A stretch of 64,000 bases of DNA from the IMG/VR virus record IMGVR_UViG_3300011989_000257, positions 64,001 to 128,000 of that record. One strand, written 5' to 3'. This stretch comes from a virus. Taxonomy: Duplodnaviria; Caudoviricetes. Within the stretch, counting starts at the first letter, position 1. Every line of letters starts with the position of its first letter. Shown piece by piece: positions 15,170-32,761 of the stretch. Under the pieces are notes generated by a model that saw nothing but the letters and a program-made list of their open reading frames with translations, was not told where the DNA came from and did no database searches. The translations under genes and the position numbers were made by a program.

Positions 15170-15359
15170 TTAGAAAATAGATTTAATACATTATTTTTTA
15201 ATATAAATATAGATTAAATACCAAAAAAATTCATAAAATGCCTAAAATAATACATTTATGAGCAATTTATGACTTATATTTGATATCTAATTAATAAATA
15301 TTTGGATGAGAATGAATATTTATAGTAAATTTAAAAATAAAAACTATATATTTGCAAAT

Positions 15360-16071: not shown

Positions 16072-16470
16072 ATGAAAAAAGTTATTAGATTAACCGAAAG
16101 CGATTTGCATGGTCTGATAAATGAATCGGTCACTAGAATAATAAATGAGATTGGTGTTTATCCAGATGGACAAACTGATTTATTCTTCGACCAAGACCAA
16201 GTTGACGAATACCGTTCATCTGCAAATGGTAGAGCAATCGAGGCTTTACTGAGGGCTGAGAGAGAATGCGGATGGAGACATATGAATTCAAAGGATATGG
16301 GGCGTTATACAGAGTATAAATGTTATCCTATTAGTGAGTACACATCAAAGGATAGACAAACCTTTATGGAAAGAATCAAAGCTTATGCTCCAGTGAAAGA
16401 TAACATAGAATTCGTATGCGTAAGGAATACATACATTAAAAGTTTTACAGTAAGAATTAAGAACATCTAA
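16072..16470 (+). CDS. Leader-family protein
   Basis: MKKVIRLTESDLHGLINESVTRIINE N-terminus. Confidence 0.8.
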   Translation: MKKVIRLTESDLHGLINESVTRIINEIGVYPDGQTDLFFDQDQVDEYRSSANGRAIEALLRAERECGWRHMNSKDMGRYTEYKCYPISEYTSKDRQTFMERIKAYAPVKDNIEFVCVRNTYIKSFTVRIKNI

Positions 16471-16475
16471 AAAAT

Positions 16476-16512
16476 AAATAAGCGAGACTAGATTTAGCCT
16501 CGCTTATTTTTT
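16476..16512. terminator. Bidirectional terminator
   Basis: aaataagcgag...ctcgcttattttt between convergent leader genes. Confidence 0.75.
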
Positions 16513-16843
16513 ATCCCATTGGTGGGAAGTCATCGTAATTGGCTTCAAGGTCAATTCTATCTTGCGCCCAATCTTCCATATCATCACCATTTACAATATC
16601 ATCTTGATAATTATCATTGTGAGTTCGGTCAAGAGGCTCTCCAGTTATTCCAAAATCGTGGTCATTTGTCATACCGTTAAATGGTGTGACTTCCTCTTCT
16701 TTCTCAAATGGTTGGTAGTTATTCAATACGTTGTCATTCTCACGCCAATCATTTCCCAATACGTCTTCCCTTATTATTCTTTTAACGGAATTCTCTATAA
16801 TACCTTTTAATTCTGATTCCGTAAGTCTTATAATTTTCTTCAT
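16511..16843 (-). CDS. Leader-family protein with acidic cargo
   Basis: MKKIIRLTESELKGIIENSVKRIIRE; ATG at 16843. Confidence 0.8.
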   Translation of the reverse strand: MKKIIRLTESELKGIIENSVKRIIREDVLGNDWRENDNVLNNYQPFEKEEEVTPFNGMTNDHDFGITGEPLDRTHNDNYQDDIVNGDDMEDWAQDRIDLEANYDDFPPMG

Positions 16844-16874
16844 ATTTTTCAATTTATTTTTACAATAAATATTC

Positions 16875-17312
16875 TTATCTTTTTGTTTTGTTTATTGTAA
16901 AACCATTTTCTTTGAAGGAATACACCAAATTATTTGCTATTGTGCTTATTTTTCTTTCCAACAAATCATTAAGGTCTTTGAGATGCTTCTTATTCTTTTC
17001 ATTCTGACGCAAATAGAAGTCAAATGATAAGAATTTTTTGTCATTAGGTGATAACCCTTCAGTGCTTATGTCAAAATCTAATATGAGACGATTATCAAAA
17101 TTTATACCATCTATTAAAAATGATTTTATGTTTTTCTTCATACGTTCCTCTATGCCATCTATAACATTATCGTAATCCATTTCCCTTTGCGGTGAAACCC
17201 AACATTTTCCACTTATATAAATGACTTGCGGATTGTTCCTATTAACAGTACCATATTTTAACGATATATGGTTGCACACATCCAATTTATACTCTTTGTT
17301 TAATCTTTTCAT
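16875..17312 (-). CDS. Hypothetical head-region protein
   Basis: 145-aa ORF with a good start context. Confidence 0.7.
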   Translation of the reverse strand: MKRLNKEYKLDVCNHISLKYGTVNRNNPQVIYISGKCWVSPQREMDYDNVIDGIEERMKKNIKSFLIDGINFDNRLILDFDISTEGLSPNDKKFLSFDFYLRQNEKNKKHLKDLNDLLERKISTIANNLVYSFKENGFTINKTKR

Positions 17313-17387
17313 ATTTTATTTAAAAAATAATGTTTTTCAATGAAAAAATCAAGTCCCACAAGTAAAAAATTAGGAAGAGTGTATAAG

Positions 17388-17417
17388 AAAAGAGCAACCA
17401 TTGTTATGATTGCTCTT
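17388..17417 (-). terminator. Terminator of a leader cassette (same stem as 23785-23816)
   Basis: aaaagagcaacca...tgattgctctt. Confidence 0.75.
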
Positions 17418-17423
17418 GAACTT

Positions 17424-17918
17424 TTATTGCCAACCCTTACCTTTTACGTATTTTGAGTCACCCCTATCGAATTTTCCAATTTCGTCAGTTGCTTTTTGAT
17501 ATTTGTCAATAGTGTTTTTTGTTGGTTTCATTTTGGAACGAGGATTAAATGCATGAGAACCATCTTTATCTTGTCTTGGGTAATATCCAGCATGCATTTG
17601 TGCATGCATTGGAGTCCAACGTCCCATTCCTCCATAAGCATTTCCAAATTGAGTAACTGTACCTTTTACGTCTTGGTGATAAGGTAAACCATTTTCATCA
17701 TATGTACCATCAAGTTCGTCATGTCCAAATTTGTCATTAAACCTATCTGTTGCAAATTGAGCTAAGTCTTCAGCTTTATCATCTTCCCCTTGCTCTGCTC
17801 GTTTCTTTGCAGCATTCGCATATGTTTTCCAATCAAGTTCTGTGAGTACCCTATTCACAGACTCTTTCACAATATTGTGAAGGTCACTCTCCGTTAATCT
17901 TATAAGTTTTTTATTCAT
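17424..17918 (-). CDS. Leader-family protein (paralog of 32072-32761)
   Basis: MNKKLIRLTESDLHNIVKESVNRVLTELDWKTY...SKYVKGKGWQ. Confidence 0.85.
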   Translation of the reverse strand: MNKKLIRLTESDLHNIVKESVNRVLTELDWKTYANAAKKRAEQGEDDKAEDLAQFATDRFNDKFGHDELDGTYDENGLPYHQDVKGTVTQFGNAYGGMGRWTPMHAQMHAGYYPRQDKDGSHAFNPRSKMKPTKNTIDKYQKATDEIGKFDRGDSKYVKGKGWQ

Positions 17919-17960
17919 ATTATAATACGTATTTAGTTCGTTATTTTAATAATAAATATC
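17851..17960 (-). repeat. Dispersed repeat copy 1: late promoter + 5' UTR + leader coding sequence
   Basis: Near-identical to 24020-24128; the non-coding 42 nt differ by one indel and one substitution. Confidence 0.85.
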
Positions 17961-17974
17961 AGATAGATTTTGCT

Positions 17975-19588
17975 TTAATCATCCATTAAGATATCCCTTA
18001 TCTCAAGTAATTTTGCGATATCCTTAACAATTGTTTCTTTATTAAAAGTCATTTCATTAATCTGGTTACTCAAGCCCTTGAGTTCAACATTTTCTGAATC
18101 TTCTTTTAGCATGTCGTTAATCTTATCTATGCATTCATTCTTGAACTTGTTAAACAATTTCTCTTTTCTTTGTTCAGCTATTGGTGTTCTGAAATCAGTT
18201 ATTTGCTGAACAAATGATAGCTCAGATTCATTAAGGTTATTCTTGAGTTTTTCCTCAAACTCTTCAATTAATTCATCTGGAGTTTTTCCTTCATTTATTT
18301 TATCTGATTTATGTGCATCCATCCATTTGCAAACAGCATCGTAACTCTCAGCAAGAGGAATCATATTGTTTGTTGTCCTCTTTGTTGTCAATATGACATC
18401 ACCATTCTCGTATAGTTTCATCGATTCCTCATCAACGAACTCACTTGGTTTAATGCCACTCTCAATCATAACGTTTCTAAGTTTCTTGTTTGAAGCCTTT
18501 ACAGTCTTGACATCAATGTCCTCGCAAACAATTTTTGCAAGGTCTGCAAGAACAGTCTTTGAACCAATTATTTTTGCATGATTCTCATTATACTGTTCCT
18601 TAATTACGTTGTAGAAATTAAATTGGCTTCTAAGATTCTTGTCCTCCTTAATGGTCTTTATGACATTCCTTACAGCCTTTTTGTTTGATTTGATAAGAGT
18701 TGGAAGCTCACTTTCAAATATATGGTTTAGAACACCAAAATTAGTTGTGTTCATTTCCTCCATTAATTCATCTTCATGTTTGCTTTCCTCTATTGCTTCA
18801 TTAAGCATGTCATTAACATATTCATATGCCTTATAATCACCTTTCTTAAGCGCCTCAGACATTATGTTAATATAATTTGAAAATTCTTCTTGATGATTTC
18901 TATTTTTCATAATTATAATATTGTTTTCTTTCTTATGTTCTTTTCCTTCTTGATATAATGTTGCATTTCTCTGGGCAAGCGTTTTCCATCCTTCCTTTTC
19001 TTTTTGTACTTGCCAAGATTTTTCTGCTTCATTATATCTTTTTATTATATCAGCTACTTTGGGGTCTATTTTAAATTCTTCATTCATTTCATCATACCCA
19101 TCATCACCATCCATATTGGAATTAATATATTCAGCAACTGTTGGGTTTTTTTCGAAGGCACTTTGTGAATCTTCTACAACTAAAAGATATTTCATAGGGT
19201 CAATTCCAAGTTCATTAACAATTTTTCTAAGCATTCTAGAACTTGGCAAATACCAAAATGCCATAAAACTAGGATATTTATCAGTATGGGTATTCCATAT
19301 TCTTCCACGACAATATGACTTCTCATAGCATTGCCTTTCAATCCAATTAATATATGTATCCTTTATATGACTGATTGCTTTGCCCATTAACTTCTTTGCC
19401 GCTTGTGCTGCAATCATAAGATGGGTTGTTGAACCAGTCATGAACAGATACTCATTATCTAACGATATTGGGAAATAACCAAAAGATGTGGCTATTTTGC
19501 TATGCCACCCCCAATCTGTCTTTGTAACGGTATCATATACATTATCTGGTGTACCTTCGAAATATTCTAATATTCTTTTATTTTTCAT
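17975..19588 (-). CDS. Two-module head-region protein (possible internal start at 18910)
   Basis: 537-aa ORF downstream of portal; the helical C-terminal module begins at MKNRNHQ behind an AT-rich start-like context. Confidence 0.75.
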   Translation of the reverse strand: MKNKRILEYFEGTPDNVYDTVTKTDWGWHSKIATSFGYFPISLDNEYLFMTGSTTHLMIAAQAAKKLMGKAISHIKDTYINWIERQCYEKSYCRGRIWNTHTDKYPSFMAFWYLPSSRMLRKIVNELGIDPMKYLLVVEDSQSAFEKNPTVAEYINSNMDGDDGYDEMNEEFKIDPKVADIIKRYNEAEKSWQVQKEKEGWKTLAQRNATLYQEGKEHKKENNIIIMKNRNHQEEFSNYINIMSEALKKGDYKAYEYVNDMLNEAIEESKHEDELMEEMNTTNFGVLNHIFESELPTLIKSNKKAVRNVIKTIKEDKNLRSQFNFYNVIKEQYNENHAKIIGSKTVLADLAKIVCEDIDVKTVKASNKKLRNVMIESGIKPSEFVDEESMKLYENGDVILTTKRTTNNMIPLAESYDAVCKWMDAHKSDKINEGKTPDELIEEFEEKLKNNLNESELSFVQQITDFRTPIAEQRKEKLFNKFKNECIDKINDMLKEDSENVELKGLSNQINEMTFNKETIVKDIAKLLEIRDILMDD

Positions 19589-19624
19589 CTAACCATTATT
19601 TCCAATAAATATCATGTTTAATAG

Positions 19625-19653
19625 AAAAAAGCGTGACATCAGTTGTCACGCTT
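19625..19653 (-). terminator. Terminator after the portal gene
   Basis: aaaaaagcgtgaca-tcagt-tgtcacgctt. Confidence 0.8.
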
Positions 19654-19660
19654 CTATTCT

Positions 19661-21697
19661 TTAATTCTTATCAACGAATTTCCCAAGTTCATCAATCATC
19701 TTGTCAAAGTCCTCATTAACCATTAAGGCATCACTGTCGTATATGTCAGCACGTTTATACTCTGTTTCCATGTGTTTACCCTTTCTCTCGTTCACTCTTG
19801 ATAGATACTCATTGAAAAGAATATCAAGTTTATCATTCTGCTCATTTATGATAGGTTTGTTAGAATGAATAGATTCCATTGGTGCATTTGGGTCATTTCC
19901 CATATCAGCAGTTGGCATTGAGCCTTCATTGCCACCCATCATTATGGTATCATCTCCAGGACCGCCAATATCACTTCCATCCATATTAGGGGCATCTCCC
20001 ATAGGAGGTGGTGGTGCTCCCATTCCGCCTCCAGGACCTCCACTACCATCCATGCCGCCTTGTCCACCTTGCATATCATCCATATACTCAGCTCCAGGTT
20101 CGCCATAGATTCTATCGACAGTATCAAATATACCTGTCTTCTTGATAATCTGAGTTGTCTTCTCAAGTTCAGCCGCAATACCCTTTTCAAGACGTATCTC
20201 TTCGAGATTTTCCTTAATTTCCTTCTCAGACCACTTCATAATCTGTTTCAATGCACGTGTCTGGGACATAACTGGAAGACCATTTCCTGGGTCGCTAACA
20301 GCATCCCTTACAGCATCAATCTTCTTCTGCATATTCTCAATCTCAAGCTGTTCAGCTTGTGTTGATGGATTATTCATTGTCAATGAGAAATTTGTTAATT
20401 CATCATTAAACCCTAACAAAAACAAATGAATTGATGCAACTTTTGTAAGTTCCATTAAGAATGCTTGCTGTATTCTGTTAACTAATCTAGTAAAACGAAT
20501 ATCCATAAGTGCAAGGTTCTTGCCATCCCCAGCAGCTTCTTCAAAGTTAAGAAATGACTTAGGTATTCTTAACGCAGTCAGTACTTTATTCTGTACGAAC
20601 TTGATATCATCCATTGCCGTAAGGTTTTGTCCTGCTGAAAGAGTATCAATAGGGTTTGGGGCATTTTCATCACGTACTGGTAAGAATACATCTTGGTCAA
20701 ATGCAAGCAAATTCTTTCTTAAGTCAATTTGACCAGTCATTGGGTCAATAATTGGAGTTCTCTTAAATTGATTTGCAATTTGTTCAACATATGCTTGCAC
20801 ATCAGCATCATCAATTGCGCCAACAAATATCTTATACACCCTACGTTCAATGGAACGTTCAAGACGATATATAAGCATCATATCTTCCATTAAGCTCAGC
20901 ATCCTCCAATGTCTTCTAGCAGCATTTAATGCTGATACGCCATACGGGAGATATAATGAGTTAGTCAATAGTCTAAAATGTGCAATCTGCCAATCTCTAA
21001 ATGGAACTTGCGAATTATTATCATCCAACCATATAAACTGAGTAGAAAGGTCAGCATCATCCTTTGTAATCCCGTTTACAGCAATTGAAGCTCCAGCACC
21101 ATATGGATTCTGTATACCATTCTCAATTCTCTCCATATTAAACACTGGAAGTTGCTTCCACCCCTTAACGCCATTCTTATGGTCAACATCTAATAGCATA
21201 AACTGATTTCCGTATTTACACATTGCACGGATAATCATAGGGGCAGTCAATTGTATATTCAATCTATTAACAAATAAATCTTCAAGGATACTCTTTATTC
21301 TGTCAGATTTGGAATATACATTGACTATATTACCTTTGTCTCCAGCAATACATGCTTCCTCCGCATATGTGTCAAGTGCAGCACCAATTTCTGGGAATGC
21401 ATCCATTAAATCTGCATCACGATACATAAGTTTAATGTTATTAAGTCCAGCATATGCAGTAACAGATAGGTTAACATTTGCTTTAACCCACCTATCTTTT
21501 AAATATTTATTTTGTCGTAGCTCTAATTTCTTTTGTATATAATCTTCTCTATCAGTGGTTCTATATAGTACATCATTATCATTGCCTTGAGACATATCAT
21601 ATGAGTTTATATGAGGCTCAATGGCAGAAGTAGGCGATGACCAATTACCAGTTATAGCTTTATCTAGAGCTTGAAATACAGTACTCTTCTTTGCCAT
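19661..21697 (-). CDS. Portal protein (T4 gp20-like)
   Basis: PEIGAALD, KYG, HFRL, PYGVS.L..ARR.W..L.LMED.MLIYRL.R..ERRVY, D.F.PVR, ALRIPK, DIRF motifs. Confidence 0.93.
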   Translation of the reverse strand: MAKKSTVFQALDKAITGNWSSPTSAIEPHINSYDMSQGNDNDVLYRTTDREDYIQKKLELRQNKYLKDRWVKANVNLSVTAYAGLNNIKLMYRDADLMDAFPEIGAALDTYAEEACIAGDKGNIVNVYSKSDRIKSILEDLFVNRLNIQLTAPMIIRAMCKYGNQFMLLDVDHKNGVKGWKQLPVFNMERIENGIQNPYGAGASIAVNGITKDDADLSTQFIWLDDNNSQVPFRDWQIAHFRLLTNSLYLPYGVSALNAARRHWRMLSLMEDMMLIYRLERSIERRVYKIFVGAIDDADVQAYVEQIANQFKRTPIIDPMTGQIDLRKNLLAFDQDVFLPVRDENAPNPIDTLSAGQNLTAMDDIKFVQNKVLTALRIPKSFLNFEEAAGDGKNLALMDIRFTRLVNRIQQAFLMELTKVASIHLFLLGFNDELTNFSLTMNNPSTQAEQLEIENMQKKIDAVRDAVSDPGNGLPVMSQTRALKQIMKWSEKEIKENLEEIRLEKGIAAELEKTTQIIKKTGIFDTVDRIYGEPGAEYMDDMQGGQGGMDGSGGPGGGMGAPPPPMGDAPNMDGSDIGGPGDDTIMMGGNEGSMPTADMGNDPNAPMESIHSNKPIINEQNDKLDILFNEYLSRVNERKGKHMETEYKRADIYDSDALMVNEDFDKMIDELGKFVDKN

Positions 21698-21749
21698 ATT
21701 ATATTTTCTTTAAAAAATAATGATTATCCTATAAATATCAAGATAAAAC

Positions 21750-21774
21750 AAAAGCGAGTGTTTTTCACTCGCTT
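21750..21774 (-). terminator. Terminator after the terminase gene
   Basis: aagcgagtg-ttttt-cactcgctt. Confidence 0.8.
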
Positions 21775-21776
21775 AA

Positions 21777-23651
21777 TTATTTCAAGCCGCCAAACACCCA
21801 CATATGAGTTCCATTAATTACATTGGTTTTAGGAAAACTTTTCTGTGTATAAAACGGTAAGCCACTCTTTGGGGTAATTGTATAGCCATCCCTCAATTTA
21901 GACCTATGGGTATTCATAGACCCACCCATCATATAAGCATTTAATATTGCTTTATCTTTTTTCTGGGTATTCTGTATTCTATTAACAGTATATTGCATAA
22001 CAAATAGTCCCATTGCAAGAGAACATAAAGTATCATCATGAGCACCCTCCATATGGTCAATACGAGCAGTTTCACCCTTAAAAATCCAAGTATTCAATTC
22101 ATTAATCACTCTTACTGAACGAATTTTAAACTCATTGTTACGAACCATTCCTGCAAAATTAGATAAAACTGGATATCTATTTCCTTGAAAATGAAATCCT
22201 GGAAGTTTATCAGTATATCCATCGTAATTCTTTGTTGACCTTTGAACCATGTAGGTTTTCTGATTCATATCTTCATAATACATGTTCTTGTATCCCATAT
22301 TTAGCATTGTTATAATGGCCGCATCTCCTTGTCCGCCAGTAGCATCAACAACAACAAATGCATCATTATACATGGTTGCATATTGATAAGCAATAGCACC
22401 AATATCATCCCCAAGCTTCTTGCCAACATACTCAGCAACTTGTTCAATGATTGGCATCCCGTTTTCATCACGTCCATCCATGTCTATTATCTCAATTGCT
22501 GTACGGTCAGCAGCAGTTCCTCTGCTAGGGTCAATTGAGCAGATATATCTGTGACCATCGATTGGTTTTTTCCAGAACCAAGTTTCCTCACACAATGGGT
22601 CGATAAAATCATCAAGTGGCTCTCTTACGTTAAACCTTTCTTGCATCTCAATATATCTTGCTGCAACCACATTATCGTTTGAACCCATGAATGACACATC
22701 AAGTTCTTGGGCAATCTTCATTTCGTCATTGTTAAATGAATGGCACATATCCTCATACCAATCAGAAGTTGGTTTCCATCCATCATGCTCTAACTTTGCC
22801 CAACGTTCTTCGTCATATTTTACCCCTCCTTCGTTGTCAATTATTAAATCAGCATCATATTCCCATTCATTGGTTTCCTCATTTTTCCTCTTCCATACAA
22901 GATGTTTATTGAAACGAGGGTCTTGATACCAACGAAATTGTACTGCTGTAAAATTGTTCTCATGAGCCAATGCTTGACGGTAAATGTTATAATACAATGC
23001 ATCCATACCATTAGGCGTACTTACAATTACAGTCTTTGAATTTGGATTTGATGCCATTGTCGCAGCAGCAGTTGTATAAACTGAGATACCATCCTCGATG
23101 AATGCCGCCTCATCAAGAATTAGAGTACCTACTGCTGATATACCACGAGCAGCATTTGGTCCACTAGCACGAGCAATAACTCTACATCCATTAAATAATT
23201 TCAATTCACTTTTTGCATCTTTAACGAAAATAGATTTGAGGTTTTTTTCTGAATTCGAATCAGTTGAAAAATATTCTGGTCCCCACATCCATCGTGGAAC
23301 TTGTTCAAGGAAATCTCTAACCTTAATGATAATTTCATTAGCTTGGTCTAGTTTGTTTGCAATACAAAGTATAATCTCTGGAGATTCCTTCGATGCAAAT
23401 GCACATTGTGCAGCAGCCCATGCACTTGACAATGTTGTTATACCACATTGTCTTGGCTTAATTGCAATCACATTATTATGTTCAGCAAGTGCTTTAAGGA
23501 ATGCCCTCTGCCTTGGAAAACAATGGAATTGTGTTTTCTTACCTTTCATAGCATTAAAGGTAGAGAAATATTTTTCTATGAATGTAATTCTAGATTTATC
23601 AGCATAGCATAAAGCATAATCCCTCTGGGCTTCTTTATAATCAAAAATCAT
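21777..23651 (-). CDS. Terminase large subunit (T4 gp17-like)
   Basis: KPRQCGITT (Walker A), LILDEAAF (Walker B), VSTPNG, IAQELD..F, nuclease DPSRG and HDD motifs. Confidence 0.95.
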   Translation of the reverse strand: MIFDYKEAQRDYALCYADKSRITFIEKYFSTFNAMKGKKTQFHCFPRQRAFLKALAEHNNVIAIKPRQCGITTLSSAWAAAQCAFASKESPEIILCIANKLDQANEIIIKVRDFLEQVPRWMWGPEYFSTDSNSEKNLKSIFVKDAKSELKLFNGCRVIARASGPNAARGISAVGTLILDEAAFIEDGISVYTTAAATMASNPNSKTVIVSTPNGMDALYYNIYRQALAHENNFTAVQFRWYQDPRFNKHLVWKRKNEETNEWEYDADLIIDNEGGVKYDEERWAKLEHDGWKPTSDWYEDMCHSFNNDEMKIAQELDVSFMGSNDNVVAARYIEMQERFNVREPLDDFIDPLCEETWFWKKPIDGHRYICSIDPSRGTAADRTAIEIIDMDGRDENGMPIIEQVAEYVGKKLGDDIGAIAYQYATMYNDAFVVVDATGGQGDAAIITMLNMGYKNMYYEDMNQKTYMVQRSTKNYDGYTDKLPGFHFQGNRYPVLSNFAGMVRNNEFKIRSVRVINELNTWIFKGETARIDHMEGAHDDTLCSLAMGLFVMQYTVNRIQNTQKKDKAILNAYMMGGSMNTHRSKLRDGYTITPKSGLPFYTQKSFPKTNVINGTHMWVFGGLK

Positions 23652-23784
23652 GTTCTTTTATTTTATTTTCTCATTATTTACAAATATATTTAAAAAATAT
23701 TATAATTCCAAACAAAAATCAGGTAAATTTAAATAAATATTACAATATTTCGAAAAGTTATTCATTTATAAATATTTACAAACA

Positions 23785-23816
23785 AAAAAAGAGCAACCAA
23801 CAGTGTGATTGCTCTT
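23785..23816 (-). terminator. Terminator of a leader cassette
   Basis: aaaaaagagcaacca...tgattgctctt. Confidence 0.75.
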
Positions 23817-23826
23817 ATACATTACA

Positions 23827-24087
23827 TCATCTTCGAGGATATGGAATGTTCCCTTCTTTATAGATTTTCACTGTAACGATAGTATCATTACTAGGATATA
23901 CGTTAAAACCGTTTTGGTTTCTATCATAGTCTAACCCACTTTGAGTTAAAACGTCTTCAATCTTATCTGCTAGCATAGAAGCAACTCCCATACCTTCATC
24001 AAATCCTTCTTTCACTATTTTATTCACTGATTCTTTCACGATTCTATGAAGGTCTTGTTCTGTTAATCTTATAAGTTTCTTATTCAT
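23827..24087 (-). CDS. Leader-family protein
   Basis: MNKKLIRLTEQDLHRIVKESVNKIVKE. Confidence 0.85.
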   Translation of the reverse strand: MNKKLIRLTEQDLHRIVKESVNKIVKEGFDEGMGVASMLADKIEDVLTQSGLDYDRNQNGFNVYPSNDTIVTVKIYKEGNIPYPRR

Positions 24088-24128
24088 ATTATAATACGTA
24101 TTAATTCGTTATTTTAATAATAAATATC
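24020..24128 (-). repeat. Dispersed repeat copy 2: late promoter + 5' UTR + leader coding sequence
   Basis: Near-identical to 17851-17960. Confidence 0.85.
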
Positions 24129-24138
24129 GTCAAGATAT

Positions 24139-25815
24139 TCAATTATTTTGTCTTAGCATTGCCATATAGCACATATCATCATGATATACATAAATATTTG
24201 GGTTTTGCGCCAATTTTTCATACACCTTTGCTATATGTTCTTTATTTATCCTTCTACCTTCGCCACTGTATATTGCACCGAACTCATAAATAAGTTTTGT
24301 ATATATCTTTGGTGCTAAACCCATATGTTGTATCCCATCATTCAAAATGATATGTATTTGAAGCATTGGCACTCTTTCCTCTGGACTGATTCTAATCTTA
24401 ACGCTCTGTGCCATAAGTAGAATCATCTGTCTTGGCATTATCTCGCCATTGATAGTTACAATCAAGTCCTCAGTGACACCATTAACATTGCCCTCAAGGA
24501 AATCAATGTTTTCTACCGTTGCAGACTGTACCAATTGCTGGTAATATTCTATTGGTTTCTGAGGTTCTGCCTCATATTGCCCCATTGTATCAGTATCATT
24601 GCTTTCTTCAATCACGTCACCTTCAGAGCTATCTGAATCAATTTCATATCCATTCGTCTCAGCCCCACTGAAATAAGAATCTTTAATTAAAGATTTGTCA
24701 ATATTCTTGGCATTTATTCTGTTGGTGAATTGCTGATATCCGTTGTCATACTCTGCATCCTTCATCAATTTGTCAAGTAACTCATTTCCTCTATTAGTAT
24801 TTGAAAGGATTTCCTTTATAGTTATACTAAACTCTTCATTTGATTGCCTAATGAGATTTATAAACATGTATGGTATCATATTAGTGTCCTCTACACGCCC
24901 AAATATTTTATTCCATAATGTGACACCAAAACGCATATCCCAAGGCTCTGCAAGCACAAAATCAGCCTTTTTGACAACAAATACAGCTTTTTCCTTATCC
25001 TCTGGTAATCCATGTGCTGAAAACAATTCAAACAATCCTTTAATTGTTTCTTGAAGTAATAATGGGAAAACTATTCCTTGTGAATTAATTGTAGTTTTCT
25101 CACCAACACCCCCAAGATGCACTTCAACATATGAGCCTTGCATTGGATTTATATCACTCATTTCTTCTTTTTTAGTGAATAAAAGATAATCATTGATAGT
25201 AACTATTTTCATATACAATGGTATAAGGTCTCTGTTGATTCTATCAATATCCTCTACATATAATCCTAATATTTTTGAATATGTATATGCAGCACCTTGT
25301 ATCAATGAATTAATGAAACGTCTCTTTTCAACAGCCTTGTCAAACAACTCAATATCAGATACATCATCGAATGTATATGTTATTTTATCATCTGATTCTG
25401 GTTTCAACCTTATTGCATTCTTAAATTTTACCTTATCTACCAATATACATTTAAGATTAAGCATTTCCTCTGGAATTGCAAACAATCGATTTATAGCATT
25501 TTCACAAATCTTTTCAAGTGTGTCCCTTATTGGGGTTTCCATCTCTTTGCATATCTTAAGTGTACTGCTCAGTTCAGACATAAGGTAGTCTTCGTCAAGG
25601 CTTTCCAAACCCAATTCCATTATTGCATCACATACTTCATTAAATCTCTCTTTAAGTATAGTATAGTCAAAAGGATAGTCACCACCACTAGGGAACATAC
25701 TACTATCCCCCAATGATGTCTCATGCGCTTTCACACTCTTGAATAAAAACTGAGGTAAAAGTCTCTTATTAAATACGTTAGCAATTGTATCTTCTTTTAG
25801 ATATATCTTTCTCAT
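24139..25815 (-). CDS. Modular late protein with C-terminal GNAT-like domain
   Basis: Helical N-terminal domain (KRRFINSLIQG...EPWDMRFG), acidic linker VIEES, C-terminal IHIILNDGIQHMGLAPKIY resembling the acetyl-CoA motif Q/RxxGxA. Confidence 0.7.
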   Translation of the reverse strand: MRKIYLKEDTIANVFNKRLLPQFLFKSVKAHETSLGDSSMFPSGGDYPFDYTILKERFNEVCDAIMELGLESLDEDYLMSELSSTLKICKEMETPIRDTLEKICENAINRLFAIPEEMLNLKCILVDKVKFKNAIRLKPESDDKITYTFDDVSDIELFDKAVEKRRFINSLIQGAAYTYSKILGLYVEDIDRINRDLIPLYMKIVTINDYLLFTKKEEMSDINPMQGSYVEVHLGGVGEKTTINSQGIVFPLLLQETIKGLFELFSAHGLPEDKEKAVFVVKKADFVLAEPWDMRFGVTLWNKIFGRVEDTNMIPYMFINLIRQSNEEFSITIKEILSNTNRGNELLDKLMKDAEYDNGYQQFTNRINAKNIDKSLIKDSYFSGAETNGYEIDSDSSEGDVIEESNDTDTMGQYEAEPQKPIEYYQQLVQSATVENIDFLEGNVNGVTEDLIVTINGEIMPRQMILLMAQSVKIRISPEERVPMLQIHIILNDGIQHMGLAPKIYTKLIYEFGAIYSGEGRRINKEHIAKVYEKLAQNPNIYVYHDDMCYMAMLRQNN

Positions 25816-26285
25816 TATAAAGTACTTAGAAAACTACTTAATTCTCTTTTAGTGAAAGGAATTGAGTTTTTCCTCATCTCAACTATTTTAGATTCCCCCA
25901 AGCCATTCTGTCCTTGTTCATCCTTTGTAATCTGGATTGTGCCTCCATTCTTTGCTGCGTTCTGTATTGTTGCGCTTGTTGCATTTTTTGCTGCAATATT
26001 CTGCACTGTGTCATTTCTTGGGTCATTATTGGAGAATGTTGGTACAGACACACCATCAATATCATCTGATTGTACTGTAACTGCTGTAGCTTGTGGAACT
26101 TGATTGAGCATGTTTTGCGCTGATGTTTGTACACTACTTGCTTGAACATCTTGTCCATTTGGATTTAATGTTAATGAAACTTTTCCATTGGTAAATGCTT
26201 CATTAAGCCTTAATTCGCCCTTTGAATATATCCTTCCCTCTCCAAGATTTTTCAAACTATTACCTTTCTTAACGAATATTTTCAT
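25815..26285 (-). CDS. Hypothetical late protein
   Basis: Likely start MKIFVKK at 26285, just after the ATATTTAT motif; LRLNE and LGES sites. Confidence 0.7.
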   Translation of the reverse strand: MKIFVKKGNSLKNLGEGRIYSKGELRLNEAFTNGKVSLTLNPNGQDVQASSVQTSAQNMLNQVPQATAVTVQSDDIDGVSVPTFSNNDPRNDTVQNIAAKNATSATIQNAAKNGGTIQITKDEQGQNGLGESKIVEMRKNSIPFTKRELSSFLSTL

Positions 26286-26353
26286 AATTTTTTTTTTAAT
26301 ATAAATATCTATATAAAACAAAAAAGGGACACTAAAAAGTATCCCTTTTTATC

Positions 26354-26803
26354 TTATTTAAAATATGGAGATTGGAATGGTGTCAAAGGTTGATTCCTAT
26401 ATTCCTTTGGCATTACTTTCTCTGGTCTCTTCGTGCCTTCATAATCATTCAAAACATCGTTTATAACCTCATCGATTACACCCTTATAATTGAATGTTGA
26501 TTCCATTGGCATTCCACCATCTTGAGGGGCTGCATTCGAATCATCTGCAATGCTTTTTGCATATTTAACAACTGCTGCCTTATCCTCTGCCGACATTCCA
26601 TCAACAATGTTATTCAATTCATCATCTTCTGGATTTTCAGCACCCATTGCATTTGGGTCTCCACCACCCATAGGGTTTTGGTCACTCATTGCATTTGGGT
26701 CATCCATAGGAGGTTCGCCACCGCCCATTGGGTCATTCATCCCCATATCATCAGTACCCGTTGGTGGCATTGGAGCATTATCTAAATCACCCATGCCATC
26801 CAT
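26354..26803 (-). CDS. Gly/Met/Pro/Asp-rich ORF, probably the -1 frameshift extension of 26869-28554
   Basis: The frame stays open upstream to the A10 run at 26874-26883; its own ATG has a poor context. Confidence 0.65.
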   Translation of the reverse strand: MDGMGDLDNAPMPPTGTDDMGMNDPMGGGEPPMDDPNAMSDQNPMGGGDPNAMGAENPEDDELNNIVDGMSAEDKAAVVKYAKSIADDSNAAPQDGGMPMESTFNYKGVIDEVINDVLNDYEGTKRPEKVMPKEYRNQPLTPFQSPYFK

Positions 26804-26868
26804 ACCGCCACCTAGGTTACTGTTTGGTATCTCTAACTTAGTTGGTCTTTCTTCGAAGAAAGATTCAG

Positions 26869-28554
26869 TTAGATTTTTTTTTTGTTTCTCATTAAACGAT
26901 TGAAAGACTCTGCAATTGCGTTGTCGATTGCTTGTGGGTCGATGTCAAATGGAGCACCATCTCCAATCTTTTCACCGTAAGGAGTATCATTTCTTACAGA
27001 ATCATCATTCATGTCATAGTAGCCTGGGAATTCCTTCATATCCTTTGGAGGTAGTTCCATAACCTTTTTCTGATATGCTGGGTGCTTTCCGAAGTCATCC
27101 AATTTATTCATATTTCCACTTGGTACACGTCCAGCGTCCTTGAAAGGCTTCATACCATCCTCATTCATTCTTTGTCTACGCATTGCATTTCTGAAAGATT
27201 TTGTCTCATAGATTTGAACGCCACCTCTGCGCCTATTCTCCATTGGCATATCGTCATCGATTGGCTCTTCCTCATCGCCAAACTCATCGCCATCTTCATC
27301 GCCAAAGATATCGTCATCGCCATAAGCTTCAGCATCAACACTTGGAGCACCAATGCCAAGTTTGTCAGCAATCTGTGAAAGAATCTCTTCCATTGCGTCT
27401 AGACGAGACTCAACATCGTCCTCATAGACATCCTCTTCGCCACCATCGTTTGCAAGGTCTTCCTCACCGCCAAACTCTTCACCATCTTCAGCACCAAGGT
27501 CATCGCCTAATGCATCTCCTTCGCCTTCAGCGCCAAGGTCATCACCGATTGGGTCACCTTCTCCTTCCTCTGGAGCAGGAGCGCCATCAACATCTTCACC
27601 ACCGAAATCATCTAATGCCTCATCAATCTGTCTTCCCTTCTCACCATCAAAAGGTTGGTCATCACCGATTTCTCCAGTACCTGGTGTTGGCGTATTCTGG
27701 TTATCCGAATCATGCATTGAAGCACCTTCCTCAACAGTTCCATTCTTCATTTCACCAGTTTGTGAAACTTTCTTGTCACCATCATCGATATTTCTAGCTT
27801 CAGCATCATCAAAAGGAGCACTATCGCCAATTTCAGTGCCATGAGACTTGTCCATGTAGTCATCGTTTCCACGATTCCATCCAAGAACCTCTTCCTCATT
27901 TACAGTCTCGCACTGACATGGGTTTTTACCACATTTAGGGCAAGTCTCACCTTCAGTCATATTAGCAGGAATCTCAGCGTTAGTATAACCAGCATTTGCA
28001 CTTGCTGCATCACCGCATTCCTCTACACTGCTAGAGATGTTGTCTTTCTGTGATTTCTTGATGTCTGCATCACAAATACCGTTTGGACATTCTTTCTTAC
28101 CCTCTGCAATCCTCATTGCATTCTCCATAATCTGGCGTGAACGTGAAAGTTCGTTCTTCATTTTGTCTGTAGCCTCGATTACAACATTCTCTTTCTTGTC
28201 CAAATCCCAAGAACTAATGTTATAATCCTTGTTATTTGCAGCCTCTTTAAGAGACATCATTTTGAGGTCGAATTGTTTCTGTGCATTTGCGAAGGAATCA
28301 TATTGATAGTCCTTACGATTACGGAAACCACCAATATAATTGAAGTCTTCTTTTACAAGGTTTGCTTTATTTGAAGCCACTTTAATATAATAATGTGTCC
28401 CTTCTCTAACAATACCATATACATTACCATCAGCACCAAGTTTCTGATTTTCTACTGAACTATATGGAGTTTTCTTACTCTCAGTTTGAAGACCATAACC
28501 CATAAGTTCCTTCATACGGCTTAAGGTCTCGTTTGTGTTCTGTTTGTTATTCAT
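26869..28554 (-). CDS. Acidic internal head/core-like protein
   Basis: 561 aa, Asp/Glu/Gly-rich, three IGDxxPFD repeats, many x-x-E sites, ATATTTAT promoter. Confidence 0.75.
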   Translation of the reverse strand: MNNKQNTNETLSRMKELMGYGLQTESKKTPYSSVENQKLGADGNVYGIVREGTHYYIKVASNKANLVKEDFNYIGGFRNRKDYQYDSFANAQKQFDLKMMSLKEAANNKDYNISSWDLDKKENVVIEATDKMKNELSRSRQIMENAMRIAEGKKECPNGICDADIKKSQKDNISSSVEECGDAASANAGYTNAEIPANMTEGETCPKCGKNPCQCETVNEEEVLGWNRGNDDYMDKSHGTEIGDSAPFDDAEARNIDDGDKKVSQTGEMKNGTVEEGASMHDSDNQNTPTPGTGEIGDDQPFDGEKGRQIDEALDDFGGEDVDGAPAPEEGEGDPIGDDLGAEGEGDALGDDLGAEDGEEFGGEEDLANDGGEEDVYEDDVESRLDAMEEILSQIADKLGIGAPSVDAEAYGDDDIFGDEDGDEFGDEEEPIDDDMPMENRRRGGVQIYETKSFRNAMRRQRMNEDGMKPFKDAGRVPSGNMNKLDDFGKHPAYQKKVMELPPKDMKEFPGYYDMNDDSVRNDTPYGEKIGDGAPFDIDPQAIDNAIAESFNRLMRNKKKI

Positions 28555-28625
28555 ATTAATATATTAATTTTTTTCAAACTTATTTTTAATAATAAATATT
28601 TCATATATTCAAAAAATATCAATAA

Positions 28626-31600
28626 TTAGTACTGATATTGATTTTGCTGTGATATTGTACTACCAAAATCATCCATTGTACCTACTTGATTATCTCTTCC
28701 TCTATAGTCGAAGTTTACTTGTCTTATGTTAGGCGTAAACTTATCCAATGCTCTTATGTATAGTACACTTTTAGGTTTCATCTCTATATTGTCCCATTGT
28801 ATGCATATACAATAATTATATCCAATTAATTGGGATAATACCTTATCATAATAGCACTTATAAAGTTTACCATTCTCCTTAGATTGCATCAGTTTTCCGT
28901 AATTAGAAACAAAGTCCTTTAATGCCTTTCTTTCTGCATCCCAACGTTTCTTATAAGGATTATGTTCACTGTTTCCATCACCAACCCATTCTTCATTAAT
29001 CATGTTCTCCTTTAGTAAGGTAATGTATTTTTGAATTGATTCATTAAACCTTGTGGTTTTCTTTGTTAACATATCTTTTCTAGATACAATTTTAACATTT
29101 GCTGGGTCGAATATTACATAATTCATATTATTTTTACCCCTACCATATTTCATTCCGTGAAGATAGCCAATTGGTACTTTAGTTCCTATATATCCCATTG
29201 ATGCAACAACCTTAGACAAGTCTATCATCTCATCATAGAGGGCTATGTGGAAATCCCTACCACTTTTTACATTATCCCACTTTGTATCAGAATTTACTCT
29301 TTCTACCAATCTATTGAACCTTTCATCAGAATATTTCCTATTTCTGATTAAGCCTTGTTTGCAATAATTAATGAAAATATTTCTAGCATCATCTGGTGTC
29401 ATTGGTGCTACATAATCAAAATATGTATTTCCATCATCATCTGGTATTTCTACTTTATACAACTGTCCTGGTAAACTATCGTATATGCTATCATAATTAT
29501 CTAAAAAATCTTTGTAATCTTGTGCAGCGTTTTCTTTTTCATCGTCAGAAGAATCCCATTTTTTCTGCATATATTCTTTCCCTTTGGCATTCATTCTAGC
29601 AGAACGGATTATTTCAATATAATGTTCACCAGTTGACTTTTTGGATGTAACATATATTCCTTTTCCATACTCTTGAGAGCCTTCTCCCTTTCCTAAAAAT
29701 TCCAAATCAAACTTATCAAACACGGCATCTGTCCCATGCCAAGCTTGCATCTCATTTGTAGATTCATTAATTGAATTGCTTCTATCATATATAATGGTTC
29801 TAAGTTTCCAAAGTTTGTCAAGATATTCTGTTCTACGAAGTATCTTATAGACAACGTTTCCAGCGCCGCTTTCGCCATTCTTTTCAAGACTTGTTTTACG
29901 CATCCCCTTTATCTTTTTCCAAAGATAGTTTGCGTCCTCTCCAATTTCTTCAATTTCATGGGAATCAACAGTAGAATTTAAGACATTATACATATCATCA
30001 ATAATAGTCATTATATCTGCTGCTTTCTTCTTGATTGAAAACTTGTCAAGACCAATTGGCTTAATATCATTCATACTTGGTTTCTTAACCCATTCGTTTT
30101 CTTCAAGGTCATATATTCCTCCACTTTGAGGCATCTCACCTAAGTTTTGAACATATAGTTCAACTGGAAAGCCTAATATTGTCAAGTCACTATGCTCACT
30201 ATTCCATTCGTTTTTCTTTGCATCAAGATAATCCCTAACAAATTCAGTTTTATCATCAATTTCATCAAAATCAACAATAAGGTGCAAATCTATGTCAGAA
30301 AATTTAGACCAATTGAAATTACAAATTGAACCAGTAAGTATTATCCCACTTGGTTTAACCCAAGTAAGATTTACAAATTCCCAAAAATCATCTGCAATAT
30401 CCAATAATCTCAGCCTAACTCTAGAATCCAAGGTATTACTATCTATCCATATAGGGGCTAATTCACTTCTCTTCTTAAATGAAGAAAGGTCAATATCAGA
30501 AGAATCTACCTCAAAATCAATATTTTCAATTATGTTTTTGATTTGGCTTTCATTGACAATTACACTTTTGTTATTTTTCTTTGATTCATATTGTACATTT
30601 CCTTGAGGCTTAATGCCTTCTTCATAATACCTCATTATATCCGCAATAACTTGCTGAGGCTTTGCGTCAGAATATGACACTGAATGTAATGTATTACCCT
30701 TATTATCAGTAAAATCTATGTCAACATCAACAGCCTTTCTAACAAATGCTCTAATTGTGAAATATTGTTCCTTTGTTGGCTCTTTGGTCATATCCAAAAT
30801 ACCGCCATTTACACAACATCTAATTGCGCCATGATTCATAAAGTCAACGACATAGTTATAGCGATACTCATCACTCCATATTGGTATGTTGTTCTTTTTA
30901 TATATGCCTTCGATTCCTCTATGGTCTTCTTCTCTATACCCATTATTACCAAAATTAAGCAGCCTACCATCTGGAAGTATGTATCCAGCTTGACCTAAGT
31001 TGCTAGTAGTACCATATTGCTCAATTGCAAGTGATATTACATCATAACTCGTTTCTTCTGCTTGTTGACTAAGTGTTTCTGACTCATCTTCGGCATTCCA
31101 AAGTTTGGAGGCATCTTCATATTTCTTCAATAAAGCATTATATATTTTTACATCATTTGGGTCTATTTCTACCTCTGGATGCATTTTCTTCATCCATGAG
31201 AAGGCGTACCAATTCTGTTCTCCGTATTTTTCTGCACCTTGTTTTCTAAAATTTTCAAGGTCGGTTATTGTTTTATTAAACAAATCATCATACTTATTTT
31301 CGTTTATTGATAAACCATTTTTATTGGAATTTATTGACTCATCCAAATTAACTATAACTGGCTTATTCTCACGTTCCATTTTCATCCATTTATAGAATTC
31401 ATATGCATTACTTTTCTTTTGGAAATAATGTGGCATTTGGTTGATATCAATAAGGTTAATAACAACCCAATTACTAAATTTATCTGGCCTAAGCTCTTTT
31501 GCCCTATCTATAAATTCTTGAGGTATTTTAGACTCATTTATACTGCCTTCATCTGCTACATGACAATAGTTGCCTCCTACTGGCGGATTGTCGCTTTCTT

Positions 31601-31736
31601 GACCTAACTCATATTTATCAGCCTCTGGTCTTGCCTCATTGACACAAATAGAGTTATGGCTGACACTATTAGTGCCAACCATACTATTCTTGATTGTCAT
31701 TAAACTATCCTCTCTAAGTGTGATAGATTTTCCCAT
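28626..31736 (-). CDS. Polyvalent multi-domain protein: GYILPDG module + pol-beta-type nucleotidyltransferase + ADP-ribosyltransferase-like domain
   Basis: IILTGS...SDIDLH...ELYVQ (NTase); AWHGT...FDKFD...G.GEG.Q.YGKGIY (ART-like); modules separated by INE/VNE/FNE linkers. Confidence 0.8.
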   Translation of the reverse strand: MGKSITLREDSLMTIKNSMVGTNSVSHNSICVNEARPEADKYELGQESDNPPVGGNYCHVADEGSINESKIPQEFIDRAKELRPDKFSNWVVINLIDINQMPHYFQKKSNAYEFYKWMKMERENKPVIVNLDESINSNKNGLSINENKYDDLFNKTITDLENFRKQGAEKYGEQNWYAFSWMKKMHPEVEIDPNDVKIYNALLKKYEDASKLWNAEDESETLSQQAEETSYDVISLAIEQYGTTSNLGQAGYILPDGRLLNFGNNGYREEDHRGIEGIYKKNNIPIWSDEYRYNYVVDFMNHGAIRCCVNGGILDMTKEPTKEQYFTIRAFVRKAVDVDIDFTDNKGNTLHSVSYSDAKPQQVIADIMRYYEEGIKPQGNVQYESKKNNKSVIVNESQIKNIIENIDFEVDSSDIDLSSFKKRSELAPIWIDSNTLDSRVRLRLLDIADDFWEFVNLTWVKPSGIILTGSICNFNWSKFSDIDLHLIVDFDEIDDKTEFVRDYLDAKKNEWNSEHSDLTILGFPVELYVQNLGEMPQSGGIYDLEENEWVKKPSMNDIKPIGLDKFSIKKKAADIMTIIDDMYNVLNSTVDSHEIEEIGEDANYLWKKIKGMRKTSLEKNGESGAGNVVYKILRRTEYLDKLWKLRTIIYDRSNSINESTNEMQAWHGTDAVFDKFDLEFLGKGEGSQEYGKGIYVTSKKSTGEHYIEIIRSARMNAKGKEYMQKKWDSSDDEKENAAQDYKDFLDNYDSIYDSLPGQLYKVEIPDDDGNTYFDYVAPMTPDDARNIFINYCKQGLIRNRKYSDERFNRLVERVNSDTKWDNVKSGRDFHIALYDEMIDLSKVVASMGYIGTKVPIGYLHGMKYGRGKNNMNYVIFDPANVKIVSRKDMLTKKTTRFNESIQKYITLLKENMINEEWVGDGNSEHNPYKKRWDAERKALKDFVSNYGKLMQSKENGKLYKCYYDKVLSQLIGYNYCICIQWDNIEMKPKSVLYIRALDKFTPNIRQVNFDYRGRDNQVGTMDDFGSTISQQNQYQY

Positions 31737-31758
31737 TCGGAACAATTTTTTCTTTTAA

Positions 31759-32043
31759 TTAGCTTTTACAATCACAGATACCTTGTCTAAGGTCTGTATA
31801 CTTAGCGCCACTCTCTGAAATAAATGAGGCAATCTCCTTGTACTCATTGTCTTTCTCTGTAGGAATTGCATTATCATGGCCGATAGGGCCATCATTATAG
31901 GCAAGAGTTTCCATACCATTAGTACTCATTTTTCCTTTTTCACTAAGAGCCTCATTATAGTTCTCTACGTCTGTGTATAGAAGTTGGTTATCCATGTCAT
32001 AGCCATATCCTTCATACATGTAATCTAAAATATTACTATTCAT
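31759..32043 (-). CDS. Hypothetical protein
   Basis: 94-aa acidic ORF in operon context. Confidence 0.65.
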   Translation of the reverse strand: MNSNILDYMYEGYGYDMDNQLLYTDVENYNEALSEKGKMSTNGMETLAYNDGPIGHDNAIPTEKDNEYKEIASFISESGAKYTDLRQGICDCKS

Positions 32044-32071
32044 AATTTTTTAAAATATTTTGTAATTGAAA

Positions 32072-32761
32072 TTATTTATCCCATCCCTTTCCTTTGGTAT
32101 ATTTGGATTTACCTTTATAGTAATCTTCCATATCTTTACTCATACCATCCAAAGATTTCATATAGTCTTTATCTCGATAGTCAGCCATATAATCAGCATT
32201 TGAAGATAATTCTGGACTAAATTTAACGCCATTACCATCAATTATATCTGTACGATGCCCGTTAAAATCGCCACTCCAAGCATCATTTTCATTGCCATAT
32301 GCATAATCATATTGGTCATCATGAATTCTTCCGCTATTTCTTAAAGGAAAACCTTCGCCACGTCTATAATGCCTTATACCGTCAGCCTTTTCTCCTTCCC
32401 ACCATCCTTGCTTGGTTGGTGCTTTAGTTTCAAAATCATCATCACTATAGGTGTTCCCTCTTGTATATCTACCTTTATAATCTGGAGAACCTTCCCATTG
32501 ATATGGATAACCATCCTTGCCATGTTTTTTGTTAAACATGGTTTGGGCATGTTTTTCTAATTCATCAGCTTTATCATCATAACCATTCCTACCACCCAAT
32601 ATAGTTTTGTGATATTTAGCCCTAAGTTCGTCACCTTGCAGTTTTCTCTTTCTAGAAGCATTCATATATGTCTTCCAATCCATCTCATTTAATGCTCTAT
32701 TAACAGATTCCTTTACAATATTATGCAAATCTGATTCAGTTAATCTTATAATCTTCTTCAT
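32072..32761 (-). CDS. Leader-family protein (paralog of 17424-17918)
   Basis: MKKIIRLTESDLHNIVKESVNRALNEMDWKTY...SKYTKGKGWDK. Confidence 0.85.
   Translation of the reverse strand: MKKIIRLTESDLHNIVKESVNRALNEMDWKTYMNASRKRKLQGDELRAKYHKTILGGRNGYDDKADELEKHAQTMFNKKHGKDGYPYQWEGSPDYKGRYTRGNTYSDDDFETKAPTKQGWWEGEKADGIRHYRRGEGFPLRNSGRIHDDQYDYAYGNENDAWSGDFNGHRTDIIDGNGVKFSPELSSNADYMADYRDKDYMKSLDGMSKDMEDYYKGKSKYTKGKGWDK

Follow-up and report, generated by a model that had tools for sequence, protein, structure and literature searches.

A 26-residue leader on small late proteins of a rumen jumbo phage is a candidate capsid-address tag

Introduction

In phage T4, a short N-terminal peptide, the capsid targeting sequence (CTS), is carried by the internal proteins IPI, IPII and IPIII, and related propeptides are found on Alt. 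The peptide is removed by the prohead protease gp21 (Mullaney and Black 1996, reviewed in PMC9026906 and PMC3012670). Here, we describe a longer leader peptide of similar pattern that recurs at the start of small, mostly unrelated proteins in the genome of an uncultured rumen phage. The leader was found in a 64,000-nucleotide (nt) stretch of DNA (the window), which is bases 64,001-128,000 of the single 412,514-bp virus record IMGVR_UViG_3300011989_000257 (34.5% G+C). Positions are those of the window unless they are given as genome positions.

The first ten residues of IPIII suffice to bring foreign proteins into the T4 prohead core, after which gp21 cleaves the peptide off. The front of the peptide is responsible for targeting and residues 8 and 10 for processing, and the diverse internal proteins of T-even phages have only the CTS in common (PMC9026906; PMC3012670). 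In T4, processing is governed by the residues that immediately precede the last Glu of the CTS, and the propeptides of giant phages carry several cut sites (PMC9026906). The protease of one such phage, SPN3US, prefers Ser at P1ʹ (PMC10052503).

Results

A leader shared by small, mostly unrelated proteins

At least 11 small, mostly unrelated late proteins of this 412-kb rumen phage, which has Prevotella-type hosts, share an N-terminal peptide of one 26-residue type with the consensus MKKIIRLTESDLHxIVKESVNRILxE. A preliminary description of the window had picked out five genes with near-identical N-termini, starting at 16072 on the plus strand and at 16843, 17918, 24087 and 32761 on the minus strand. 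All five are present, with leaders of 26-27 residues, and are recovered with E values of 1e-15 to 1e-17 when the whole genome is scanned in six frames with a leader profile. The scan, which the same description had proposed as a check, also found six further strong copies outside the window, and relatives of the phage carry leaders too. Five of the six are in small genes at 380-404 kb (genome positions 393351, 390539, 379845, 394412 and 404299). The sixth (genome position 6311) is inside a 137-amino-acid (aa) protein, behind a DUF3008-like N-terminal part, such that 10 of the 11 copies are N-terminal. This recurrence is far beyond chance. Residues L7, T8, E9, L12 and E26 are invariant in an alignment of the 11 copies (A1).

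Among the five window genes, gene A (16072-16470, plus strand; 132 aa; leader 16072-16149) starts 4 nt after the prohead protease gene. The other four are on the minus strand. Gene B (16511-16843; 110 aa; leader 16766-16843) has a cargo, as we call the part behind the leader, with a net charge of -20; its true start is the ATG at 16843, although the list of open reading frames (ORFs) runs on to a TTG at 16852. Gene C (17424-17918; 164 aa; leader 17838-17918) has a cargo of a type that we call DWKTY...KGKGW, gene D (23827-24087; leader 24007-24087) encodes 86 aa, and gene E (32072-32761; leader 32684-32761) encodes 229 aa. The five proteins had been said to mostly diverge after the leader. Their cargoes are indeed diverse, but C and E are paralogues and share theirs.

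Weaker versions of the leader had been listed at 1630, 25815, 31736, 32936 and 41024. All of these score below 11 bits with the long-leader profile, and we reject their membership of the same long-leader family. The start at 41024 stands as a candidate short-form leader, a form that is described below: the gene (41024-41383, plus strand; 119 aa) starts with MKRFILSENGLERLKQNLIRE, has ATATTTAT upstream, and scores 12.5 bits with a short-leader profile. The sites at 25815 and 31736 are marginal (3.7 bits). The short-leader profile recovers 41024, along with a few genes elsewhere in the genome, and misses both 1630 and 32936; 1630 scores 4.0 bits with the long-leader profile, and 32936 has no score in either list. 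An internal recurrence had also been reported. The peptide KSVIVNESQ is present near 30563, in the ORF of a 1039-aa late protein (28626-31745, minus strand), but it is merely a weak half-leader, KSVIVNESQIKNIIEN, just 5ʹ of a phrog_36119 domain.

Conservation ends at a glutamate

We calculated information content from 457 distinct copies anchored at the leader end, with an anchor-free check on ~455 copies. At 18 of the 26 positions the information exceeds 2 bits, with 4.1 bits at His13. It is 3.4 bits at Glu26 and 0.2-0.83 bits at all later positions. The anchor did not force this result: position 26 is Glu in 94% of copies, the exceptions are mostly a Glu shifted by 1-2 residues, and position 24 is L, I, V or M in 98%. 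Hence, the earlier observation that similarity ends at an I/L/V-x-E holds for the family as a whole. A conserved stretch that ends at Glu26, with L/I/V/M at position 24, matches the dependence of T4 processing on the residues just before the terminal Glu (PMC9026906). Each leader includes three [ILV]-x-E motifs: L-T-E-S at residues 7-10, V/I-K-E-S at 16-19, and I/L-x-E at 24-26. The first two precede a Ser.

The DNA that encodes the leader is far more variable. Among the 11 copies, pairwise nucleotide identity is 46-77%, and the same codon is used in only 392 of 843 identical residue pairs (46%). Matching residues even switch between codon families (TCN and AGY for Ser, TTR and CTN for Leu). 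Since codons match at just 46% of identical residues, selection acts on the peptide, not on the DNA. The codon divergence also led us to reject recent DNA duplication or gene conversion as the cause of the similarity.

In AlphaFold models, residues 1-9 of the leader are coil and residues ~10-26 are helix. For protein A, the leader helix (residues 9-27) is parted from a folded domain at residues 50-132 by a stretch with a predicted local distance difference test score (pLDDT) of 41-50. For protein C, the leader has a pLDDT of 76-84, with further helices directly after it, and the whole model has a pLDDT of 78.7.

Diverse cargoes and two lengths of leader

The cargoes fall into many families: 463 distinct segments gave 193 clusters, with 147 singletons (blastp E < 1e-4). 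In this genome, the eleven cargoes range from 53 to 203 residues; they are strongly hydrophilic, and two are basic. It had been suggested that they are effectors. We found no support for this: the cargoes are small hydrophilic proteins with almost no known domains, and Pfam, fold and protein-atlas searches indicated no enzyme or effector identity, the protein atlas returning unnamed clusters alone.

The largest cargo family is that of C and E, in which the DWKTY start and the KGKGW end are conserved and the middle is hypervariable. This middle is indel-rich and of low complexity (alignment A3, 41 members), a pattern that suggests two anchored ends around a fast-evolving or disordered centre. 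The model of cargo C has no PDB match at E ≤ 0.001. Cargo A is modelled as a generic ferredoxin-like alpha/beta domain behind a low-confidence linker. Its fold matches reach a Z score of 8.8 and are mostly designed proteins; nothing significant was found among viral models, and no function follows from the fold matches.

In orthologues of cargo A that are 66-75% identical, on contigs of up to ~417 kb, a 16-17-residue leader, e.g. MKRIVISESAYHRLLE, replaces the 26-residue one. An alignment of 19 sequences (A5) shows that the short leader lacks columns 17-25 and that M1, E9 and E26 are invariant throughout. Therefore, the long leader corresponds to the short one with 9-10 residues inserted, and the junction with the cargo is at one and the same Glu in both. 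As judged from these alignments, the exchange of long and short leaders on cargo A is the strongest new evidence that the leader is portable. Where homologues of the cargo of leader gene F sit behind degenerate upstream sequence, a hydrophobic-x-E is still kept directly before the cargo. With a threshold of 3 bits, the short-leader profile matches 31 of 570 N-termini in the genome versus 14 of 2,142 internal windows (~8-fold enrichment). It picks out genome position 49467-49724 (21 bits), the gene at 41024, and a few weaker candidates.

Most copies of the leader are N-terminal. In unbiased loci, 123 copies are N-terminal (81%), 20 are internal (~13%), and 8 are ambiguous. Proteins with 2-3 copies are common among the best database matches, but the ranking favours multi-copy proteins. 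The leader start is still a Met in 30% of internal copies, and an E-S/T pair is found no more than 12 residues upstream in 42%, compared with a background of 7.5%. These remnants suggest that leader genes were once separate and became fused, possibly with a further cut site. Internal and tandem copies thus look polyprotein-like. Further architectures include DUF3008-leader-cargo and LPD3-leader-cargo.

One database homologue (P0071, 500 aa) starts with the second half of a leader, then has an HNH_3 endonuclease-like region, then two full leaders with cargo. A homing-endonuclease gene may have landed inside an array of leader genes.

Leader genes of a T4-type head module and a late-type promoter motif

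The window includes a T4-type module of head and tail genes, which are on the minus strand except where stated. The module is bounded on the head side by a gp20-like portal gene (19661-21697). Below it lie a prohead protease gene (15306-16067, plus strand), a gene for a 497-aa acidic scaffold-like protein in the gp22 position (13676-15169), assigned by position and composition without a family match, and a gp23-like major capsid protein (MCP) gene (11574-13604). The T4 head genes are in the order 20-(67, 68)-21-22-23, which is consistent with PMC9026906, and the head module in the window follows this order. Genes B, C and A sit between the portal gene and the protease, scaffold and MCP genes, i.e. 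in the place of T4 gp67 and gp68. Also in the module are genes for the large terminase (21777-23651), a 537-aa protein (p537, 17975-19588), a 145-aa protein (p145, 16875-17312), the tail sheath (7457-10732) and the tail tube (5875-6363). In five of six relatives with MCPs that are 72-92% identical, leader genes are again found in the head module, beside an S77 protease, with different cargoes.

The protease (253 aa) is of the Peptidase_S77 or T4 gp21 type (PF03420, E 1.3e-25; phrog_207, E 2.6e-42) and is the proposed processing enzyme. In the MCP, I42-K43-E44 stands immediately before residue 45, to which the first residue of mature T4-family gp23 aligns. The N-terminus of the protease has an L-x-E-I-K that is kept in relatives and resembles the LIE-9 site of T4 gp21 (PMC9026906). 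From these two sites, which are an indirect basis, the specificity of the protease looks T4-like. In four relatives (G006, G007, G011 and G013; loci L084, L085, L088 and L089), the S77 domain fronts an ORF of 380-609 aa rather than the 253 aa seen here.

The first 50 residues of the scaffold-like protein are strongly conserved and end in L-L-S-E, followed by a long acidic tract (alignment A4). There is also a conserved D-M-N-E-S...A-L-N-E-Y block. Both are possible protease sites of the same type as those of the leader. A complex prediction for the scaffold-like protein with the leader gave a score of 0.00; controls were not run, so this gives no verdict either way.

The motif ATATTTAT(A) is found upstream of 63 genes, and it is enriched at leader genes: it precedes 6 of the 9 that are called, versus 57 of 561 other genes (Fisher p = 9e-5). 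ATATTTAT starts 29 nt upstream of the ATG of gene B, and the late motif is 41, 40 and 30 nt upstream of genes C, D and E, respectively. ATATTTATA, a likely late promoter of this phage clade, precedes the MCP, scaffold, portal and sheath genes (13604, 15169, 21697 and 10732) by 41-51 nt. Copy K is downstream of late-motif genes. A second main upstream motif, TATCTTTG (TTTCGTATCTTTGCA-like sites), precedes 71 mostly non-structural genes, mainly at 101-120 kb and 160-330 kb of the genome; we take it to fit the Bacteroidota TAnnTTTG promoter element. The five window genes had been described as late-type genes of the head region. The leader also occurs elsewhere: the five strong copies at 380-404 kb are among other genes.

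Six late proteins of ~250 to 1641 aa have another N-terminal module in common, M-A/K-I/V-Y-L-K-x-F ... ILPNVS, beyond which they differ. Their genes are at 60137-62203 (minus strand) in the window and at genome positions 132912, 133740-138665, 140630, 141614 and 231447. They are probably tail-fibre or branch proteins that share an attachment domain. One of the group, a 688-aa protein, matches the repeat-rich phrog_35892.

Distribution of the leader

In a library of 1.84 billion proteins, 6,897 representative proteins match the leader profile at E ≤ 1e-3, of which 1,015 do so at E ≤ 1e-10. All named matches are "hypothetical". Pfam gave no match at E ≤ 0.01 for the five window leader proteins, other than a sub-threshold UCMA match on protein E. 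For 150 homologues at E ≤ 0.001, it gave DUF3008 in three, LPD3 in one, HNH_3 in one, RelB_like_antitoxin in one (9e-4), and little else. A literature search found no publication that describes the leader.

Leaders are found in 260 IMG/VR stretches. Contigs of 85-170 kb among these are merely 29-53% complete (CheckV), so every located IMG/VR copy belongs to a jumbo phage, whether to a full genome or to part of it. Overall, the copies that we could place come from rumen-type jumbo-phage contigs or Prevotella assemblies. The complete relatives have 8, 10, 18, 18 and 30 copies. Among GenBank phages, tblastn with protein E and a two-leader homologue gave no match, nor did megablast with the region; since tblastn cannot detect a 10-residue tag, this is no test of homology to the T4 CTS. 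Among species-representative prokaryote genomes, the leader is almost solely on contigs of metagenome-assembled genomes (MAGs) of rumen Prevotella or Prevotellaceae, including a "MAG" scaffold of 408 kb.

The protease and the leader occur together. PF03420 is present in 8 of 10 leader-bearing contigs longer than 240 kb, and in 5 of 6 that are at least 90% complete. We did not count the relative G012 (95% complete, no S77 match) as a protease-less phage, as its MCP is also fragmentary; its head genes may be interrupted or recoded. In G012 and G001, both of which bear leaders, the MCP appears as separate short pieces (G012:C1:174778-175149 and 284104-284244; G001:C1:86240-86344): residues 1-35, with 94% identity, are in a 50-aa frame, and residues 447-493 are in a 93-aa frame. 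These pieces may reflect introns, inserted elements or stop-codon recoding in late genes.

Three cultured strains have a single intact chromosomal leader copy each: Segatella bryantii DSM 11371 (L128:9884-10258; near 3,246,935 of NZ_BPTR01000001), Prevotella sp. MA2016 (L129) and Prevotella sp. tf2-5 (L130). Each copy is a gene with promoter and leader in a low-G+C patch. The S. bryantii copy has 130 bp that are 89% identical to the promoter and leader of gene D. The MA2016 and tf2-5 copies adjoin an IS1595-like transposase gene, and the two strains share solely the insertion sequence (IS) and a 92-bp leader segment. The phage has an IS1595-like transposase gene of its own (G000:C1, genome position 232,547-233,512), with ~61% protein and ~70% DNA identity to the Prevotella one. 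This degree of identity implies that the IS is shared between phage and host. The chromosomal fragments support a Prevotella or Segatella host.

Discussion

What is the function of the leader? On balance, and by analogy with T4, we consider it probable that the leader works as a capsid-address tag, in the form of a portable N-terminal propeptide related to, but larger than, the T4 CTS. This reading starts from what the sequences show: a module with a sharp boundary that is exchanged between cargoes and has a late-type promoter and a place in the head module. We propose that leader-bearing proteins are made late in infection, alongside the head proteins. The leader, as a short extended stretch followed by a 17-residue amphipathic helix, would then dock them into the core of the assembling prohead. 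The S77 (gp21-type) protease would cut after the invariant Glu26, and probably also after Glu9 and Glu18, because each of these is in an [ILV]-x-E-S motif. The small cargo would thus be freed inside the head, with the tag broken into pieces. Internal and tandem copies would serve as cleavable joints of small polyproteins. In this scheme, binding to the core, cleavage, retention in the virion and injection would all proceed as they do in T4. At the level of sequence, everything that the T4 CTS model leads one to expect was found.

Several observations weigh against this interpretation. The leader is longer than the T4 CTS and, with most of its positions above 2 bits, far more conserved, which hints at a further or different constraint. 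An [ILV]-x-E is short and is easily produced by an amphipathic helix. The internal copies, some of them C-terminal, would not be predicted for a pure N-terminal address. Of the eleven cargoes, three have a strongly negative net charge (-20 to -24), whereas T4 internal proteins are basic; these cargoes could equally be disposable components of the prohead core rather than injected proteins. The operon of the protease gene and gene A, and the leader genes G, I and J, lack the late motif. Finally, the single intact chromosomal copies in S. bryantii, MA2016 and tf2-5 occur with no PF03420. To judge from their sequence and surroundings, these look like phage-derived fragments that moved into the host, not an independent system, and as such they do not refute a capsid tag. 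A gene of this kind in a host chromosome, which combines a capsid-type tag with a late promoter from a phage, would be silent outside infection. Together, the high conservation, the internal copies and the acidic cargoes keep other explanations alive, and the leader may have an added function.

An alternative explanation, which we regard as unlikely, is that the leader is not cut but is a docking or assembly helix that ties many small proteins to a single shared partner, be it part of the virion or a complex of the host or phage. The very high conservation on all faces of the helix, including His13, suggests a tight, specific interface. Internal, tandem and C-terminal copies would fit a multivalent tether, and the leader of protein C, with its pLDDT of 76-84, runs directly into further helices. 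However, a retained helix leaves three observations unexplained: that conservation stops at an invariant Glu preceded by L/I/V, that long and short leaders join the same cargo at this same Glu, and that a hydrophobic-x-E is kept before cargo F behind degenerate upstream sequence. The proposed capsid tag explains the sharp Glu boundary and the long/short exchange better than any of its rivals.

The three [ILV]-x-E(-S) motifs per leader, the excess of E-S/T pairs upstream of internal copies, and the DUF3008-leader-cargo and LPD3-leader-cargo architectures could instead be read as signs of processing without targeting. The leader would then be a protease-recognised joint for polyproteins and precursors, with head entry, if any, dependent on the cargo. 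We consider this quite improbable, since the great majority of copies in unbiased loci are N-terminal on single small proteins, where there is nothing upstream to release and a joint would be hard to explain unless the peptide had a function of its own.

It is very doubtful that the leader is a nucleic-acid-binding element on DNA-associated proteins. A hydrophobic-x-hydrophobic-T-E followed by a helix would suit a strand and helix like the first half of a ribbon-helix-helix, which is a likeness rather than a profile match, and tandem copies exist. Nevertheless, no second helix is present, the models show coil in place of the strand, several cargoes are highly acidic, and the Pfam searches of the five window proteins and 150 homologues gave no match to a ribbon-helix-helix family other than the one RelB_like_antitoxin. 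Least credible of all is a DNA- or RNA-level cassette, i.e. a promoter and 5ʹ coding region kept for recombination or to control translation: upstream of genes C and D, ~70 nt are nearly identical, and their leaders have 77% identity, and promoter-plus-leader DNA recurs in bacterial chromosomes beside an IS element, but the codon and nucleotide identities among the 11 copies are too low for a nucleic-acid signal when the peptide is nearly invariant.

If the leader is a capsid tag, the T4 internal proteins would be the small end of a widespread strategy, in which large gut and rumen phages of Bacteroidota use one tag to pack 8-30 different small proteins per genome for delivery along with the DNA. 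There would be a role for a large unannotated block of proteins, the 6,897 representative clusters without a Pfam family, and a ready-made tag for loading foreign proteins into the capsids of Bacteroidota phages. The hypothesis makes a simple, testable prediction, namely a cut behind a single specified Glu. Judging by the chromosomal fragments, a relative might be isolated on Prevotella and Segatella strains, among them the cultured S. bryantii DSM 11371.

We also put forward, tentatively, a broader possibility. Jumbo phages of rumen Prevotella may have a large, open-ended capsid-loading system, in which one strictly conserved tag, in a long and a short version that differ through an insertion of 9-10 residues, is placed on dozens of fast-changing small proteins per genome and on thousands of families overall, some of them made as tag-cut polyproteins. 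Promoter-tag fragments captured by the host would be switched on solely by the late transcription of an infecting phage, and their products could be loaded into its capsids.

How does the leader compare with described systems? The polyvalent proteins of phages and conjugative elements, reportedly recognised by Iyer and colleagues in 2017 and the origin of the LPD domains, comprise several modules, probably accompany the DNA and are probably cut into parts. One homologue that joins LPD3 to a leader and cargo resembles them. Polyvalent proteins are very large, with known enzymatic modules, whereas leader proteins are mostly 60-350 residues long and have no known domains.

A closer likeness is to the jumbo phages phiKZ, 201phi2-1 and SPN3US, in which head proteins are processed after Glu, propeptides have multiple sites, and Ser is favoured at P1ʹ (PMC9026906; PMC10052503). 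Their propeptides differ from the leader in being longer than 100 residues and in belonging to paralogue families, with no single portable tag, and they are cut at S/A/G-x-E rather than the I/L/V-x-E seen here.

The leader resembles the T4 CTS in pattern only. The leader has 26 residues (16-17 in the short form) rather than 10, three cut-type motifs, 8-30 copies per genome, thousands of protein clusters, and some internal or tandem copies. Nonetheless, as in T4, an N-terminal peptide that ends in hydrophobic-x-Glu is found on otherwise unrelated small, probably late proteins, together with a gp21-type S77 protease, a T4-like head module, and scattered, variable cargo genes. The principle is thus known from T4. 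What is new is this tag, its size and spread, its two length forms on one cargo, its polyprotein-like copies, and its fragments in host chromosomes.

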